Positions 29,017 through 34,468 of a DNA stretch of 64,000 nucleotides are shown here, one piece after another (position 1 is the first letter of the stretch; the number at the start of each line of letters is the position of its first letter). Position numbers and translations under genes: made by a program. The notes below the pieces were generated by a model, which ran no database searches, was not told the origin of the DNA, and saw only the letters and a program-made list of their open reading frames with translations. Source of the stretch: an uncultured Enterobacteriaceae bacterium (GTDB lineage Bacteria > Pseudomonadota > Gammaproteobacteria > Burkholderiales > SG8-39); contig CAZNVH010000015.1 in the NCBI GenBank assembly GCA_964576525.1, positions 39,883-103,882 of the forward strand, read 5' to 3'.

Positions 29017-29244
29017 TCAGGCCGCCAGGCCTCGCGCGTGCGCGATCTCGCCACCGCCTACCTCCCTCAGTTGCCCGGTAGACAAGGTAGTCACCGCGAC
29101 CGTCTCCCCGTCCAGCGCGATGAACTCGACCTCATAGCCCCCGCCGTCGCCATGGACGAGCACTACCGTACCGACATCGCCACGCTTCAGGCCATGTTCA
29201 GGCAGGTCACACTCCAGGACTACGGCATCCAGCTCGCGGATCAT
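29017..29244 (-). CDS. DUF4926-like small protein
   Basis: 75 aa from MIRELDAVVLECDLPEHGLKRGDVGTVVLVHGDGGGYEVEF. ATGA overlap with the upstream small gene. Confidence 0.55.
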   Translation of the reverse strand: MIRELDAVVLECDLPEHGLKRGDVGTVVLVHGDGGGYEVEFIALDGETVAVTTLSTGQLREVGGGEIAHARGLAA

Positions 29245-29588
29245 GGCGATTTCCTCTTCAGCGGATGCGCGGTAGCAAACCGCGGCACCGATGTCGTTTC
29301 GCTTATAAACCATACGCTGCGCACGTTCAAGATTCTACCGTCGGGCGCGGCCAGTGGGCCGTCAACTACATAACGCGTGCCGTACGGCGTGTTCCTGACT
29401 GAAGCGACGACATTCTCCGCGGCATGCCGGCGCAGCGCTTCAGCGAGCGCTCGCCAGTTTTTCACCGTAAACCCGTGCTTCCCGAAGAATTCGGCCTTGC
29501 TCCGCCCCGCCGGGTGGGTTGACGAGAGTAAATACCGGACGATCTTTGCCTCGGAGATCTCCGCCTTATCGGCATCGGGTAATCCCAT
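29241..29588 (-). CDS. DUF6883-like small protein
   Basis: 115 aa from MGLPDADKAEISEAKIVRYLLSSTHPAGRSKAEFFGKHGF. The pattern is recalled as DUF6883. It is paired with the DUF4926-like gene in a TA-like two-gene cassette. Confidence 0.5.
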   Translation of the reverse strand: MGLPDADKAEISEAKIVRYLLSSTHPAGRSKAEFFGKHGFTVKNWRALAEALRRHAAENVVASVRNTPYGTRYVVDGPLAAPDGRILNVRSVWFISETTSVPRFATAHPLKRKSP

Positions 29589-29684
29589 TTGATCTGCTTC
29601 TCGCTGGATCCAAGCAGGTAACGCGGCCTGGCCCGCTGCAGTTGACGCGCTCGACCGCGAGCGCCGACGCATCCCAGAACCGCA

Positions 29685-29975
29685 TTAGCGGCGTTCCCGG
29701 TCCTCGGCGATCAGGCGCGCGGCATCGGCCGCCTTGCGCAGCTTCGCCGGCCTCGGCAGGCGCCGCGGCGGCGCCTTGCGCCCGAGGCGGACGATGCCGC
29801 GTCTCTCGAGCTCGGCGAGGCGCGCGTCCTGCTGCGTCCGCGTCCCGGGTTCGAGCGGCGCGAGACGCGCCACCGGTCGTCCGCGATCGGTGATCAGAAT
29901 CGTCTCGCCACCCCGCACGCGATCGACGTAGGCCGAAAGACGGTTCTTCGCTTCCGAGATCGAGGCTCGCTTCAT
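29685..29975 (-). CDS. Phd/YefM-family type II antitoxin (no cognate toxin ORF seen)
   Basis: 96 aa from MKRASISEAKNRLSAYVDRVRGGETILITDRGRPVARLAPL, a classical Phd/YefM N-terminus. The listed start at 30092 adds Gly/Arg-rich junk. Confidence 0.75.
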   Translation of the reverse strand: MKRASISEAKNRLSAYVDRVRGGETILITDRGRPVARLAPLEPGTRTQQDARLAELERRGIVRLGRKAPPRRLPRPAKLRKAADAARLIAEDRERR

Positions 29976-29994
29976 CTGGCCACTATAGCCAGAT
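29974..29994. promoter_or_regulatory. 7-bp inverted repeat ATCTGGC-N7-GCCAGAT overlapping the antitoxin start codon (candidate operator)
   Basis: Read directly. On the coding strand it is ATCTGGC-TATAGTG-GCCAGAT-G, with a TATAGT -10-like hexamer in the spacer and the ATG formed by the right arm. Confidence 0.3.
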
Positions 29995-30145
29995 CGCCAG
30001 GCTGCGGGTAACGCGCCGGGCCCGCCTCCGCCGGTCGGCGGACCAAGGCGGGCACCGGTGCGGGCCGCGGGAACCGCGGCCGTTCTCATCATGGCGGGCC
30101 CTGGACGCCCGAGTGCTCACCCGGTGCGACCGTAATCGCGCCGGC

Positions 30146-31375
30146 TCAGGCGTTCGGGCGTGCTGGCGACGCGCAGGCCGTTGTTGTTGTTGCGGTTAGA
30201 AGTCGTGTTGTTGTTGCGGTTGGCGGAGCGCAGGTTCTGTGGATTGTTGTTCCACGAGCCGCCACGCTGGACGCGCTGCGCACAAAGGGCCAGCCAGGCT
30301 CGCGCGGCGCCTCGTTCGACGGATCGAACCAGCCGCCGCGAAAGATCGCGCGCCTCAGGCGCCAGGTGTCGGCATGTTCGGCATGCGCGATCCAGGCGCC
30401 GATGCGCCGCACAACTTCCTCTCCTGTCACCGTGCCCGCGCGCCAGCGGTCGCGCAGCCCGCGCAGCCGGTTGCGGAAGCGCCTCACATTGTCTTCCGGC
30501 AGCCGGCGGTAGCCGCGCGGCGCGAGCACGTAGCCGAGAAAACGCGCCGGCGCGGCGCTCTCGGCGATGTGCGTCTTTTCGGGGTGAAGCAGGAGCCGCC
30601 TGCCGCAGAGAAAGCGCGCAAGCTCGCCCCGCCACGCTTCGAGGGTATCCACGCCGTCCGCAAACAGGGCGAAGTCGTCGACGTAGCGCACATAGGGGGC
30701 GCGCAGCACTTCCGTGGCGAAGTGATCCAGGCAGTCGAGATACAGGTTGGCGAAGAACTGGCTGGTGAGGTTGCCGATCGGCAGGCCGCGCCTGCGCCCA
30801 AAGGGCGAGAACAAATCATCTCCGGGAAAATAACGCTCGACCGGCTCCTGGCGATTGGCGCCGTCGACGATGGCATCGAGCAGCGCGAGTGTGCGCGCGC
30901 AGGCGATGCGGCGCCGGAACTCCGCCTTCAATATTTCATGATCGACGGCCGGGAAATAGCGGTAGACGTCGCAGCGGAGCACGTGGCGGTGCCGGTCGCG
31001 GTAGCGCTCGTAGCAGGCGACCGCGCGGTGCGAGCCCTTGCCCGTGCGGTTGGCATACGTGTTGGCGATGAAACCGCGCTCGAAGAGCGGCTCGACCACC
31101 GCGCAGAGCGCGTGGTGCACGACGCGGTCGCGAAACGGCGCCGCGGAGATGTTGCGCGGCTTGGGATCGAGCACGCGGAAGGTGACGTAGCCGCCGGGCC
31201 GCCAGCTTCCCTCCAGCAGCCCGCGCTCGAGCTTGAGCAGCTCGCGCTCCAGGTTGGCCATGAACGCTGCGGCGCCGGGCTTCCTGCGCTTGCCCGTGAC
31301 GGCCCGCAGCGCCGCTTCGTGCAGCGCGCGAAAGTTCGCGATGCGCGCAAAGAGGTCTTCAGCCCTGCGCGGCAC
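30146..31375 (-). CDS. DGR reverse transcriptase (Brt-like)
   Basis: Motifs KPRNISAAPFRDRVVHHAL, YANRTGKGSHRAV, LPIGNLTSQFFANLYL, YVRYVDDFALF, FLGYVL and AHAEHADTWRL. The probable start is GTG 31375 (17-nt overlap with avd), with an alternative ATG at 31453. The last 60 or so codons read through the TR in another frame (TTT runs). Confidence 0.88.
   Translation of the reverse strand: MPRRAEDLFARIANFRALHEAALRAVTGKRRKPGAAAFMANLERELLKLERGLLEGSWRPGGYVTFRVLDPKPRNISAAPFRDRVVHHALCAVVEPLFERGFIANTYANRTGKGSHRAVACYERYRDRHRHVLRCDVYRYFPAVDHEILKAEFRRRIACARTLALLDAIVDGANRQEPVERYFPGDDLFSPFGRRRGLPIGNLTSQFFANLYLDCLDHFATEVLRAPYVRYVDDFALFADGVDTLEAWRGELARFLCGRRLLLHPEKTHIAESAAPARFLGYVLAPRGYRRLPEDNVRRFRNRLRGLRDRWRAGTVTGEEVVRRIGAWIAHAEHADTWRLRRAIFRGGWFDPSNEAPREPGWPFVRSASSVAARGTTIHRTCAPPTATTTRLLTATTTTACASPARPNA
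30163..30285 (-). repeat. DGR template repeat (TR), 123 nt, AAC-rich
   Basis: Coding-strand sequence is TTGTGCGCAGCGCGTCCAGCGTGGCGGCTCGTGGAACAACAATCCACAGAACCTGCGCTCCGCCAACCGCAACAACAACACGACTTCTAACCGCAACAACAACAACGGCCTGCGCGTCGCCAG. It aligns to 31794..31922 with differences only at TR adenines plus one 6-nt indel. Confidence 0.9.
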
Positions 31376-31721
31376 GGTTCGCCTTCTTCCAGCCGCCGAC
31401 CAGGCGCCCCGTCTCGTCGAGGTTGCGCGCCGCGTGCTCGTAGCGGCGCGCATCGAGGAGCCTCAGGTCGTGCGCGAGGCGAAACAGGATGCGCAGCTTG
31501 TCCAGGCCTAGGTTCGCCGCGTCGAGCGCCTGCTCGCGCCGGCGGTCGTAGGTGGCCTCGATCAGGCGCTCGAGCACGTCGAGCGCGCCCGCCTGGATGC
31601 GGTCGCCGAGCAGGAACTTCTGCGAGCGCGGGAACTTCTCCACCGTCGGGATGAGCCACAACAGAAACCGGTACAGCGCTTCAAGAGCCGGGCCGGTTTT
31701 GCGCGCTGAGCTGTCCGCCAT
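31359..31721 (-). CDS. avd: DGR accessory variability determinant (Avd, four-helix-bundle protein)
   Basis: 120 aa with LEALYRFLLWLIPTVEKFPRSQKFLLGDRIQAGALDVLERLIEA, typical of the four-helix-bundle/Avd family. It sits between the target and the RT. Confidence 0.8.
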   Translation of the reverse strand: MADSSARKTGPALEALYRFLLWLIPTVEKFPRSQKFLLGDRIQAGALDVLERLIEATYDRRREQALDAANLGLDKLRILFRLAHDLRLLDARRYEHAARNLDETGRLVGGWKKANRAAQG

Positions 31722-31729
31722 TCAAATTT

Positions 31730-31753
31730 CCGCCGCGCCTCACGGCGCGGCGG
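31730..31753. other. Perfect 10-bp GC stem / 4-nt loop hairpin between the VR-bearing gene and avd
   Basis: CCGCCGCGCC (31730-31739), loop TCAC, GGCGCGGCGG (31744-31753). The loop on the coding strand is GTGA. It lies 40 nt downstream of the VR 3' end. Confidence 0.7.
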
Positions 31754-31783: not shown

Positions 31784-33640
31784 CTAGTTTGTCCTGGCGA
31801 CGCGCAGGCCGAAGTCGAAGCCGCGGTAAGAAGCCGAGTAGCTGAAGTAGCCGCGGACGGCGGAGCGCAGGGACCGCGGATTGATGAACCACGAGCCGCC
31901 ACGCTGGACGCGCCGCGCACAATTGCTGGAAGTCCACGCGCTGCCGTCGCCCGGCGCCCCGGCATAGTTCGAATTCCAGCAATCCTCGACCCATTCCCAG
32001 ACGTTGCCATGCACGTCGTACAGCCCGAAAGCGTTCGGCGAATATTTTCCAACCTCCACCGTCTTGCCTTCTTTCGTCCCGGTCGGGCTCCCCGCGTAAG
32101 AGACCGAGGCATCATAGTTTGCCTGCTGCGGCGAGATGCTGTTGCCCCAGGAGAATGCGGTCGTCGTGCCGGCGCGCGCGACGTATTCCCATTCCGCCTC
32201 GGTGAGCAGCCGGTAGCTCTTGCCCGTCTTGCGCGAGAGCCAGGCGACGTACTGCTTCGCGTCATCCCACGAAACGTGGATGACCGGCCGCCGGCCGCGG
32301 CCGGAGTCGCTCGGGTTATGGCTGCAGCCGTTTTCGCGCACGCAGGCGTCCCATTCGTCGAAGGTGACTTCGTATTTGCCCGCGGCGAAGGAACGGGAGA
32401 TTGTTACCTGGTGCTGCGGGCCTTCGTCGCCGCCTCGCCCAGGCTCGGACTGGGGCGATCCCATCATGAAGCTGCCGGGCGGGATCATGATCATCTCGGG
32501 GCAGACATCGCAGTCGCGGAAGCTCGTGCCGGGCCGGGCCGAAGGAGGCGAGACCACGCTCGGCGGCGCGACAACGACCACCTGCTGCGGCGGCGGCGCG
32601 GAAATCGTGGGCGCGACAACGGTCACCTGCGGTCGCGGGGCGGAAACCGCGGGCGCGGCGGCTGGGGCCGGCGCGGGGCTCAACGCCTTCAGGCGGGCGC
32701 GGGCGACGCCGGCAAAGCGGCCCTTCGGGTACTGCTCGAGATAGGCGTTGAGCTCATCGGCGTTGCGGCTGTTCCTGACGCTCTCCCACAGCGCGAGCTC
32801 GAGCGCCACGGGATCGGTGGCGGGGGTTGCTGCCGCGGGAGTTGGCGTGGTCTGGGGAGCAGCAGCGACCTGGGTCCCAGGCCGGAAGTAGAAGTCGCCA
32901 ACCAGAGAGGTCGATTCCCAGGGCGTCTGCTTGCCGCCGGTTTCCCTGACCACGCCGGCGCGGGTGCGCTGGAAGACCTTGAGGAGATCGGTATCAGACT
33001 GATTCAGGCTCGCGAGCAGATGCTTGGTGTACGTGCCGTTGCGTCCCGCACCGTCCGCCGCCACTGAGCCGGGCGCGGTGGCGAAGGCGATGACGCTGCC
33101 AGTAGCGGCGTTCATCTGCGCGAGCCCGCGCGACGCCGAACGGAAGCTGCGCGCGAAGGGATTGTTGCGGCAGGCATCGAGGACGATGATGCTGACCTTG
33201 ACCTGCGCCTCTTCCATGGTGCGCAGCGCGAGGTTCGCATTGATCGCCAGGTCCTCGGCCTCGGCTTCGCTCTGGATGTCGGCCCCGACAGGGACGAGGT
33301 AGTTCTCCCCTTTCACCTGCACGCCGTGGCCCGCGAAAAAGAAGAGGCCGACCTGAGCGCGTCGCAGCTCGGCGCCGAACTCGCGAATCGCTTGCCGCAT
33401 GTCGCGGCTGCCGGCATTGCGCTTGAGGATAACCTTGAAGCCGAACCGCTCGAGAGCCTTGGCGATGTCCGCCGCGTCATTCGCCGGGTTGGCGAGCGGC
33501 GAGTCCTTGTAGGCCGAGTTGCCGATCACGAGCGCCACGCGCTGCTCGCCCGCCTGGGCGGGAGCGACATTGAGGTTGCGCTGCGCGGCGGCGGTGGCCG
33601 GCACAGCGGAAATCAGGACCGCGAGAAGAATCCGCCACAT
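31784..33640 (-). CDS. DGR target protein: signal peptide + caspase-like peptidase C14 domain + Pro/Ala-rich linker + FGE-sulfatase (C-type-lectin fold) domain carrying the VR
   Basis: 618 aa from MWRILLAVLISAVPATAAAQ (ATG 33640 preceded by GGGAGGG; the listed start at 33658 is TTG). Caspase His/Cys dyad contexts are FFFAGHGVQ and IVLDACRNNPF. The FGE-sulfatase region is MIMIPPGSFMMGSP...VSWDDAKQYVAWLS...RLLTEAEWEYVARAG...GLYDVHGNVWEWVEDCW...RVQRGGSW. Confidence 0.85.
   Translation of the reverse strand: MWRILLAVLISAVPATAAAQRNLNVAPAQAGEQRVALVIGNSAYKDSPLANPANDAADIAKALERFGFKVILKRNAGSRDMRQAIREFGAELRRAQVGLFFFAGHGVQVKGENYLVPVGADIQSEAEAEDLAINANLALRTMEEAQVKVSIIVLDACRNNPFARSFRSASRGLAQMNAATGSVIAFATAPGSVAADGAGRNGTYTKHLLASLNQSDTDLLKVFQRTRAGVVRETGGKQTPWESTSLVGDFYFRPGTQVAAAPQTTPTPAAATPATDPVALELALWESVRNSRNADELNAYLEQYPKGRFAGVARARLKALSPAPAPAAAPAVSAPRPQVTVVAPTISAPPPQQVVVVAPPSVVSPPSARPGTSFRDCDVCPEMIMIPPGSFMMGSPQSEPGRGGDEGPQHQVTISRSFAAGKYEVTFDEWDACVRENGCSHNPSDSGRGRRPVIHVSWDDAKQYVAWLSRKTGKSYRLLTEAEWEYVARAGTTTAFSWGNSISPQQANYDASVSYAGSPTGTKEGKTVEVGKYSPNAFGLYDVHGNVWEWVEDCWNSNYAGAPGDGSAWTSSNCARRVQRGGSWFINPRSLRSAVRGYFSYSASYRGFDFGLRVARTN
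31794..31922 (-). repeat. DGR variable repeat (VR), 129 nt, at the 3' end of the target gene
   Basis: Coding strand is TTGTGCGCGGCGCGTCCAGCGTGGCGGCTCGTGGTTCATCAATCCGCGGTCCCTGCGCTCCGCCGTCCGCGGCTACTTCAGCTACTCGGCTTCTTACCGCGGCTTCGACTTCGGCCTGCGCGTCGCCAG. It ends 7 nt before the TAG stop. Confidence 0.9.
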
Positions 33641-33751
33641 GAACCCTCCCTGGCTCAAGGCGAACTAGGCGAAGGTATTGTAGGCCTACGGGAGCAAGCA
33701 GCGGCGGTGCTGCTGCACCGACCTATAGCGGAATATCACCTGCCAGAGAAC

Positions 33752-34381
33752 CTAGAAGGAGAACTTGAGCCGCAGGTCCCAGGCGTCGACCCGGAGGTCG
33801 TCGAGGATCTGGAACCGGGTCCAGGCGATCCCAGCCGAGAGGCCTCCGGCCAGCATGTACGACGCGCCGACCCCGAAGTACGGCGAGACGCCTTCGTCCG
33901 ACGAGGCCGCGGGAACGGGCTTGTTGTCGAAGGTACCCGCGCCCGTCGCGGTCACGTCCGCGCTCCAGAAGTAGCCTCCCATGCGCGCATTGAGCCTGAA
34001 GCGCTCGATGTAGGTCTCGAAAACCGGCCCGAGAAACACGCCCGCACTCTCGATTCTCACGTTGAGCGGGCCGGGCGAATTGAACTTCAGCCGGCCGATC
34101 GCACCGGCTTGCGGCCCGGGGGCGCTGATCCCGGTCTCGCCGAGGTCGCGGTATCCGGCTTCGATGCCGACGAAACGGTTGAACATGTATCCGATGCCGA
34201 CCGACCAGGTCGCGTCGGCGCGATCCGACGAGAAACCCTGGTCCTCGAAGTCGTTGTAGTTCGTCAGCCCCTTGCCGAGGGCGACTTCGGCGAAGAACTG
34301 GGCCTGCGCCGCGAGCGCGCAAAGCCAGAGCGCGAGCCCAACGCAGAGCGAAAGCACAGGCTTCAATCGAACCTCCTTCAC
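33752..34381 (-). CDS. Outer-membrane beta-barrel protein (OmpA-like barrel / OMP_b-brl family)
   Basis: 209 aa with a signal peptide ending AAQAQ, alternating amphipathic strands and a C-terminal ...WDLRLKFSF (terminal Phe). GTG start. Confidence 0.65.
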   Translation of the reverse strand: MKEVRLKPVLSLCVGLALWLCALAAQAQFFAEVALGKGLTNYNDFEDQGFSSDRADATWSVGIGYMFNRFVGIEAGYRDLGETGISAPGPQAGAIGRLKFNSPGPLNVRIESAGVFLGPVFETYIERFRLNARMGGYFWSADVTATGAGTFDNKPVPAASSDEGVSPYFGVGASYMLAGGLSAGIAWTRFQILDDLRVDAWDLRLKFSF

Positions 34382-34391
34382 CGGAGAAATC

Positions 34392-34468
34392 TGGTAGGCG
34401 CGATTGGACTCGAACCAACGACCCCCACCATGTCAAGGTGGTGCTCTAACCAGCTGAGCTACGCGCCT
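34392..34468 (-). tRNA. tRNA-Val (anticodon GAC)
   Basis: Reverse complement is AGGCGCGTAGCTCAGCTGGTTAGAGCACCACCTTGACATGGTGGGGGTCGTTGGTTCGAGTCCAATCGCGCCTACCA, with anticodon loop TTGACAT and an encoded CCA. Confidence 0.92.

Follow-up and report, generated by a model that had tools for sequence, protein, structure and literature searches.

A chromosomal diversity-generating retroelement whose target is probably an exported caspase-like protease joined to a variable lectin-fold domain

Proteins that join a caspase-like peptidase to a formylglycine-generating enzyme (FGE)-sulfatase domain have been reported before, and so have protease-related targets of diversity-generating retroelements (DGRs). 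A 2012 survey counted 33 metacaspase-FGE-sulfatase sequences from several phyla and found FGE-sulfatase to be the fifth most common partner (PMC3501461). Protease-related FGE-sulfatase DGR targets were listed in 2018 as classes b4 and b5, in a paper whose text leaves the protease family unnamed (PMC5758913). Caspase and FGS domains also co-occur in NTPase-dependent cytoplasmic conflict systems (PMC7159879, PMC8195603, PMC10907252), and a 2023 paper speculates on periplasmic DGR-based immunity, with no candidate of the exported kind in which a C14 peptidase is linked to a C-type-lectin-fold (CLec) domain (PMC10053308). Here we describe such a candidate in a 64,000-nucleotide stretch (the window) of contig CAZNVH010000015.1, from assembly GCA_964576525.1 of an uncultured bacterium that GTDB places in the Burkholderiales lineage SG8-39. 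The window carries a chromosomal DGR whose single in-window target is, in our judgment, probably a Sec-exported caspase-like protease (clan CD, cysteine type) tethered to a variable lectin recognition module.

The DGR is complete and lies downstream of the 618-residue target gene (31784..33640), on the minus strand like every other feature of the window located below; it comprises avd, a reverse transcriptase (RT) gene and a template repeat (TR). The TR (30163..30285, 123 nt) lies within the RT reading frame, at its 3' end, and holds 33 adenines, mostly in AAC codons. Aligned with it, the variable region (VR; 31794..31922, 129 nt) makes up the last ~43 codons of the target, residues ~574-616. 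Every one of the 24 substitutions between the two repeats falls at a TR adenine, which leaves 9 adenines unchanged (24 of 33 differ) and no non-adenine mismatch in 123 nt. The accessory protein gene avd (31359..31721, 120 residues) matches NCBIfam NF033474 DivGenRetAVD at 109.3 bits against a cut-off of 80, and Pfam bAvd at E=4.8e-18. The RT (30146..31375), whose open reading frame (ORF) reads through the TR, matches RVT_1 (E=4e-14) and the PADLOC RT model (E=2e-42), shows PIGNLTSQ and YVDD motifs in translation, and is 63-68% identical to the RTs of other TR/VR-bearing cassettes (L031, L102); its longest ORF starts at ATG 31453, and the probable start, GTG 31375, overlaps the stop of avd, an arrangement that recurs in related loci. 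The final 17 nt, GGCCTGCGCGTCGCCAG, are the same in VR and TR and the sequences diverge beyond them, making this a candidate segment resembling the initiation of mutagenic homing (IMH) element. A GC-rich hairpin (31730..31753; 10-bp stem, GTGA loop) lies 31 nt past the target stop as a candidate target-recognition element, and a GC hairpin occurs at an equal offset after the target in locus L088. We found no second VR for this TR within the window.

These features fit standard DGR mutagenic homing, a mechanism that is well supported here: the RT would copy the TR with adenine-specific errors and the cDNA would replace the VR, so that ~17 codons would be rewritten and the ligand-binding face of the lectin domain would change, with protease and scaffold held constant. 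The VR exceeds the TR by 6 nt (two NNC codons) within an AAC run, where all five VR codons are NNC, and at this site it is longer than almost all homologs; VR length polymorphism also occurs within homolog clusters (P0136 is 2 residues shorter, P0189 1 residue longer). TR/VR indels are reported in 7% of DGRs, 74% of these adjoining AAC, and have been ascribed to template slippage (PMC5758913). The 6-nt length difference is explained by its match to these AAC-adjacent slippage indels.

Translation of the target most likely begins at ATG 33640, 4-5 nt downstream of a GGGAGGG Shine-Dalgarno sequence; on inspection none precedes the in-frame TTG at 33658, so the start codon used in the original prediction is the likely one. 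From there the protein runs through a signal peptide, a C14 caspase-like domain, a linker, a three-helix module, a second linker and an FGE-type CLec domain containing the VR. An AlphaFold2 model, built from an alignment of 59 full-length homologs that are 47-79% identical to the window protein, has a mean predicted local distance difference test score (pLDDT) of 85.5. The anatomy that the original prediction had read from the letters alone, namely a Sec-type signal peptide, a C14 domain with both dyad motifs intact, an FGE/CLec domain ending in the VR, and an adjacent DGR, is borne out by the Avd, RT and 24/24 adenine-directed substitutions above and by the searches and model set out below; none of the outcomes that the prediction had named as refuting it was seen.

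The protease domain (residues 34-251; 32888..33541) matches Pfam PF00656, Peptidase_C14, at E=5.8e-39 and 134.6 bits against a gathering cut-off of 21.4. Both catalytic contexts are present, FFFAGHGVQ with His105 and IVLDACRNNPF with Cys157 (GHG being residues 104-106 and DACR residues 155-158). In a phmmer search of PDB sequences the closest solved relative of this domain is the MALT1 paracaspase (E=3e-15), in an alignment that pairs FFFAGHG with MALT1 LYYAGHG and VLDACRN with MALT1 LLDMCRK. In MALT1 numbering, His105 and Cys157 align with His415 and Cys464, and Asp55 and Asp155 with the S1-pocket residues Asp365 and Asp462; Val193 of the target pairs with the third S1 residue, Glu500. The modelled domain adopts a caspase fold (pLDDT >90 over residues 34-252; Foldseek template-modelling score TMt 0.78 to inhibitor-bound MALT1, 3v4o), in which the strong profile match and the alignment of the dyad with that of MALT1 support the predicted intact His/Cys pair. 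Because two acidic residues are conserved, the putative S1 acids Asp55 and Asp155 would probably confer a P1 preference for Arg or Lys.

Whether the caspase-like domain works as a protease bears on a different reading of the protein, as a variable adhesin or binder in which that domain is a non-working scaffold or pro-domain. TvpA-type DGR targets, to which the protein would then be likened, are thought to be binders (PMC5758913), and a survey scored the Cys/His dyad as absent from a Trichodesmium C14/FGE-sulfatase protein (PMC3501461), so inactive versions exist. Across the 59 homologs, however, D55, G104, H105, D155, C157 and R158 are all invariant, and the GHG and DACR motifs are retained by all other targets encoded beside a DGR in cis. 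Such invariance of the dyad and its flanks, in sequences that are otherwise 47-79% identical, indicates that catalysis has probably been under selection, and we judge a purely adhesive role very unlikely.

The C-terminal domain (residues 373-618; 31787..32524) is of the FGE-sulfatase/C-type-lectin fold, PvdO/TvpA type, by Pfam, PDB sequence and Foldseek comparison; PF03781 matches residues 380-616 at E=4.8e-56 (190.7 bits, cut-off 23.3), so that the VR at residues ~574-616 of 618 forms its C-terminal end, as predicted. Its closest solved structure is PvdO, 5hha (E=2e-57, TMt 0.84, ~42% identity in the Foldseek alignment), followed among PDB entries by formylglycine-generating enzymes and the DGR target TvpA (2y3c; E=2e-14, TMt 0.71). 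PvdO is a periplasmic protein with the FGE fold and without the FGE active-site cysteines. A phmmer alignment pairs human FGE GGSYMCH with target GGSWFIN, and by its cysteine numbering we take the active-site residues Cys336 and Cys341 to fall at Ile586 and Leu591 of the target, both inside the VR. Since the positions of the FGE cysteines are occupied by Ile and Leu, the domain is not an FGE, and that assignment was ruled out; column 586 is hypervariable among homologs. By analogy, the VR would sit where FGE has its catalytic groove and TvpA its variable binding face, and its residues are presumably exposed at the surface.

These same matches could be taken to mean that the C-terminal domain is an FGE-like or PvdO-like enzyme, part of a bifunctional periplasmic maturation enzyme in which the TR/VR similarity is incidental; the best matches are indeed PvdO (E=2e-57) and the NCBIfam model pyoverdine_PvdO (E=2e-68). 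The PvdO equivalog (NF051459) was nevertheless rejected, its 230.4 bits lying far under the cut-off of 500, and the FGE Cys positions are Ile586 and Leu591 in the VR. Among the translated ORFs at 27-40 kb, which surround the locus, we noted no pyoverdine (pvd) gene; the search did not extend to other parts of the window. Nor are 24 of 24 TR/VR differences at adenines, beside Avd and RT, an incidental similarity, and we consider an enzymatic C-terminal domain extremely improbable.

Between the two large domains, the original prediction had placed one long Pro/Ala/Val-rich linker. Its composition was read correctly; the single linker is in fact two, residues 253-276 and 321-372, both Pro/Ala/Val-rich and disordered in the model, around a folded module. 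The second is 69% Pro, Ala and Val. It also contains, at window positions 32560-32638, a 34-nt imperfect direct repeat (79% identity, 45-nt spacing) coding for VVAP...PP repeats, which is probably a simple linker expansion. The folded module (residues 277-320; 32681..32812) is a conserved three-helix mini-domain with pLDDT >90 and helices at 277-288, 294-303 and 310-320, in which W285, A313 and R316 are near-invariant in the 59-sequence alignment. It has no Pfam match at E<=10, and a PDB sequence search returned only noise.

At the N-terminus (MWRILLAVLISAVPATAAA|Q), a rule-based reading of n, h and c regions identifies a Sec-type signal peptide (residues 1-19; 33584..33640) with one basic residue, a hydrophobic core of 12 residues and an AXA site: M-W-R is followed by the core ILLAVLISAVPA and then by T-AAA|Q, with predicted signal peptidase I cleavage at AAA|Q. 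The core is too short for a membrane helix, and inspection of the N-terminus found neither a lipobox Cys nor a twin-arginine motif. The prediction of a signal peptide gains from its conservation, its features being present in 102/120 homologs by a crude rule and in all four of the other cis-DGR targets; homolog signal peptides usually end in A-x-A, followed by Q-R-N-L or E-K-R immediately before the caspase domain. The suggestion that the protein might act outside the cell found no support, there being no secretion-system signal, and the periplasm is the default destination; residence in the periplasm is thus what the sequence features make most likely. Some relatives among the top 120 homologs carry partner domains of envelope type (SH3_3, PG_binding_1, PDZ, PEGA), so an envelope location fits.

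It is the order of the domains that suggests the reprogrammed protease targeting put forward in the original prediction. The variable lectin domain would act as a recognition module, bringing or clustering the tethered protease onto its ligand in the cell envelope, with conflict involving phages, toxins or competitors as the likely setting. Long flexible tethers would suit capture of a ligand by the lectin, the protease acting on the ligand or near it. On this arrangement of domains, binder-guided proteolysis in the envelope is plausible; binding may direct cleavage of the ligand, or it may cluster the protease and so activate it, as happens with MALT1 and caspases. We infer protease activity, the P1 preference, periplasmic residence, the ligand and the biological role.

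The protein might instead be a ligand-triggered suicide or alarm effector, in which the lectin is the sensor and a multivalent invader component dimerises the caspase domains by induced proximity, after which the protease would cleave the cell's own envelope proteins and bring on growth arrest or death instead of destroying the ligand. MALT1, the closest solved relative of the protease domain, is activated by dimerisation. Toxin-antitoxin modules flank the window locus and several homolog loci, and published models of caspase/FGS conflict systems have the same sensor-effector logic (PMC7159879, PMC8195603, PMC10907252). Those systems, however, are cytoplasmic and need STAND or MoxR-vWA NTPases, adaptors or EACC1 partners, none of which is present here: the target and the ORFs at 27-40 kb contain no STAND NTPase, MoxR-vWA pair or EAD adaptor domains. 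No conserved substrate or effector gene adjoins the homologs either, and we regard a suicide function as rather doubtful, preferring the tethered protease directed at or near the ligand of its lectin domain.

The target belongs to a large family, with more than 7,500 matches at E<=1e-10 in a collection of 5.8 billion proteins, and nearly all of the top 120 homologs combine PF00656 with PF03781. Cis cassettes in the same order, target-Avd-RT, occur in related loci L087, L088, L002 and L102/L103. In L002, from a Methylomonas metagenome-assembled genome, 17/17 TR/VR mismatches are at TR adenines. The cassette of L102/L103 (L102 5001-11419) has an RT 67.5% identical to the window RT and serves two targets: the proximal one is an FGE protein, and the distal one, encoded ~3 kb upstream of avd, is a C14-FGE protein. 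Mismatches are confined to TR adenines in both (15/15 for the FGE protein, 18/18 for the C14-FGE protein). In L031 (4999-9560) the RT is 63% and the Avd 78% identical to those of the window, 16/17 TR/VR mismatches are at TR adenines, and the cassette adjoins a gene with a vWA domain; the target is a 370-residue exported helical-plus-FGE protein without a caspase domain, so the cassette moves among exported PvdO-like targets. Domain number also varies in the family: P0002 (L081 7084-8679; 893 residues, 59% identical to the window protein) has two tandem FGE domains after the caspase domain, and no RT was found within 6 kb of it.

Adenine mutagenesis has left a footprint beyond these cassettes. 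We counted, at the 13 columns that are AAC-templated in the window TR, the residues K, E, Q, M and W, which NNC codons cannot encode. Their share at these columns is 3.3%, against 18-19% both elsewhere in the domain and in control columns of equal variability, and they are wholly absent from the 13 columns in 42 of the 59 homologs; most close homologs thus carry the footprint. Among clusters at 90% identity, 6/10 vary mainly in the VR (in cluster P0043, 16/37 columns are variable in the VR against 4/590 elsewhere), and the four invariant clusters mostly hold non-NNC residues at VR positions. At the codon level, 14 of the 82 distinct VR-equivalents from fetched loci are DGR-like, 41 are not and 27 are mixed. 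For five of the 14, the flank reaches at least 3 kb and contains no RT. All-NNC VR codons without K/E/Q/M/W, or cluster variation confined to the VR, are found with no RT within 3-8 kb in L086 (P0004), L113, L007, L130, L148 and the P0139 cluster; such homologs are candidates for a trans-acting DGR or for recent orphaning.

Several observations weigh against a general coupling of this protein to a DGR, and against the reading we favor. Most family members lack a cis DGR, including the close homologs P0002, P0012, P0004 and the P0139 locus; where flanks suffice, a cis DGR accompanies about one in 12 C14+FGE loci in the genome sample and 2/25 in the metagenome sample. Among the more distant VR-equivalents, about half lack DGR-like codons, so a fixed binding site serves the fusion as well and the family does not depend on hypervariation. 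Only one sequence of the window VR is on record (cluster size 1), so that present activity of the window DGR is presumptive. Apart from the generic caspase and RT models PADLOC returned no system match, and the defence context, with toxin-antitoxin genes nearby, is only suggestive. Judged by codons and neighbours, fixed and DGR-diversified members coexist in the family, and some of the diversified ones would be served in trans or recently orphaned. A wider proposal, which we hold tentatively and at low confidence, is that exported C14-linker-CLec proteins form a widespread periplasmic surveillance family, each in effect a hypervariable binder fixed to a caspase-like protease, with incoming phage, toxin or competitor proteins recognised in the envelope and either destroyed or acting as triggers, and with anticipatory diversity supplied by a DGR in cis or elsewhere in the genome; a DGR acting from either position would explain the footprint in members without a neighbouring RT.

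Retroelements have probably been lost in parts of the family, which raises the case that the window DGR is itself a relic, intact in appearance but no longer diversifying, with the VR a frozen past variant. Decayed cassettes stand beside family members in L110 (5849-6362; a full Avd with RT residues 1-87 only) and, as Avd fragments only, in L133 (7026-7151) and L119 (930-1085), which suggests repeated DGR loss. DGR-like codons persist without a cis RT in L086, L113 and L007, and the VR and TR of the window differ in length by 6 nt. On the other side, the Avd and RT ORFs of the window are full length with catalytic motifs, the absence of any non-adenine mismatch over 123 nt of TR/VR argues against long drift since the last homing, and active DGRs are known to produce indels of 3n nt beside AAC runs (PMC5758913). 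We therefore think a relic unlikely and continue to treat the window DGR as the element that diversifies its target.

Several other genes lie around the locus. Directly upstream of the target, on the same strand and as originally predicted, lies a gene for a small outer-membrane protein (OMP) beta-barrel (33752..34381; OMP_b-brl, E=3e-12). Its position stands; a link to the target does not, since tblastn with the protein matched none of 168 related loci, and at the cis-DGR loci L087 and L088 the upstream place is taken by toxin-antitoxin or helix-turn-helix genes. With no counterpart next to homologs, we rejected the OMP as a system partner; it is probably not part of the system. A tRNA-Val(GAC) gene (34392..34468) is immediately upstream of the OMP gene. 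A genomic island at this tRNA was considered and set aside, as the window contains no direct repeat of the tRNA 3' end and no att-like repeat. The NCBIfam model for an EACC1-associated caspase (NF047832) was likewise rejected for the target, at 59.4 bits against a cut-off of 140 and with the OMP gene and avd, not EACC1, as neighbours. The RT is followed immediately downstream by genes for a Phd/YefM-like antitoxin (29685-30092) and for DUF6883 (29241-29672) and DUF4926 (29017-29313) proteins. Homologs in L081, L087, L088 and the P0139 locus also have toxin-antitoxin modules on their flanks (MazEF, PIN/RHH, ParDE, TacAT, Phd/YoeB); these neighbours are suggestive of a variable, defence-rich region and of nothing further. 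A simple promoter and terminator scan of 29.9-34.6 kb gave nothing above shuffled expectation.

Should the protease be active and steered by its variable domain, the family would amount to a natural binder-directed protease with re-randomisable specificity, relevant to the biology of envelope-level defence and to the engineering of targeted proteolysis, where it could serve as a scaffold. From the survey comes a test set for these ideas: the cis cassettes of L002, L087, L088 and L102, the clusters that vary in the VR, and the footprint members without a nearby RT, which set trans action against repeated DGR loss.

The novelty implied in the original prediction does not hold, since C14+FGE-sulfatase proteins and protease- or orthocaspase-CLec DGR targets were already published (PMC3501461, PMC5758913, PMC7517822), and the window locus adds no new principle to published DGR target catalogues. 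This exported, dyad-intact, PvdO-like family of proteobacteria is singled out in no paper that we found, in a literature coverage that is incomplete and with large catalogues that may include members without comment. Among related systems, the metacaspase-FGE-sulfatase proteins of Asplund-Samuelsson et al. (2012, PMC3501461) carry both Pfam domains in matching order; the authors drew no DGR connection and speculated on formylglycine modification, an activity unlikely for the window protein because the FGE catalytic cysteines are missing. The cyanobacterial orthocaspase-CLec DGR targets (Vallota-Eastman et al. 2020, PMC7517822) share the order of N-terminal caspase homolog and C-terminal CLec domain. 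They are mostly predicted to be cytosolic, and at least one Trichodesmium C14/FGE-sulfatase protein lacks the dyad (PMC3501461), whereas the window protein has a Sec signal peptide, belongs to a family in which the dyad is invariant, has a lectin domain of the PvdO-like subtype and lies in a genomic context of betaproteobacterial type.

The FGE-sulfatase DGR targets of category b (Wu et al. 2018, PMC5758913), with TvpA of Treponema denticola (2y3c) as prototype, have a C-terminal VR in an FGE-subtype CLec domain with Avd and RT adjacent, as in the window; unlike the window protein, TvpA has no protease domain. PvdO of Pseudomonas aeruginosa (5hha) is also without one, and is a single-domain protein of the pyoverdine pathway that is not hypervariable. 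MALT1 is a eukaryotic cytosolic signalling protease with death, immunoglobulin and other domains, with which the window protein has in common the dyad and two of the three S1 acids. The NTPase-dependent conflict systems (Kaur et al. 2020, 2021; Dore et al. 2024) resemble the window protein in pairing a DGR-diversified FGS/CLec domain, the presumed sensor, with a peptidase, caspase-like or trypsin-like in those systems; they are mostly cytoplasmic, are enriched in multicellular bacteria and rely on MoxR-vWA or STAND NTPases with adaptors, components absent from the window gene and its immediate neighbours. Set beside all of these, what the survey contributes is a large family of exported proteobacterial proteins in which the dyad is invariant, cis cassettes recur, and a mutagenesis footprint is widespread without a cis RT.

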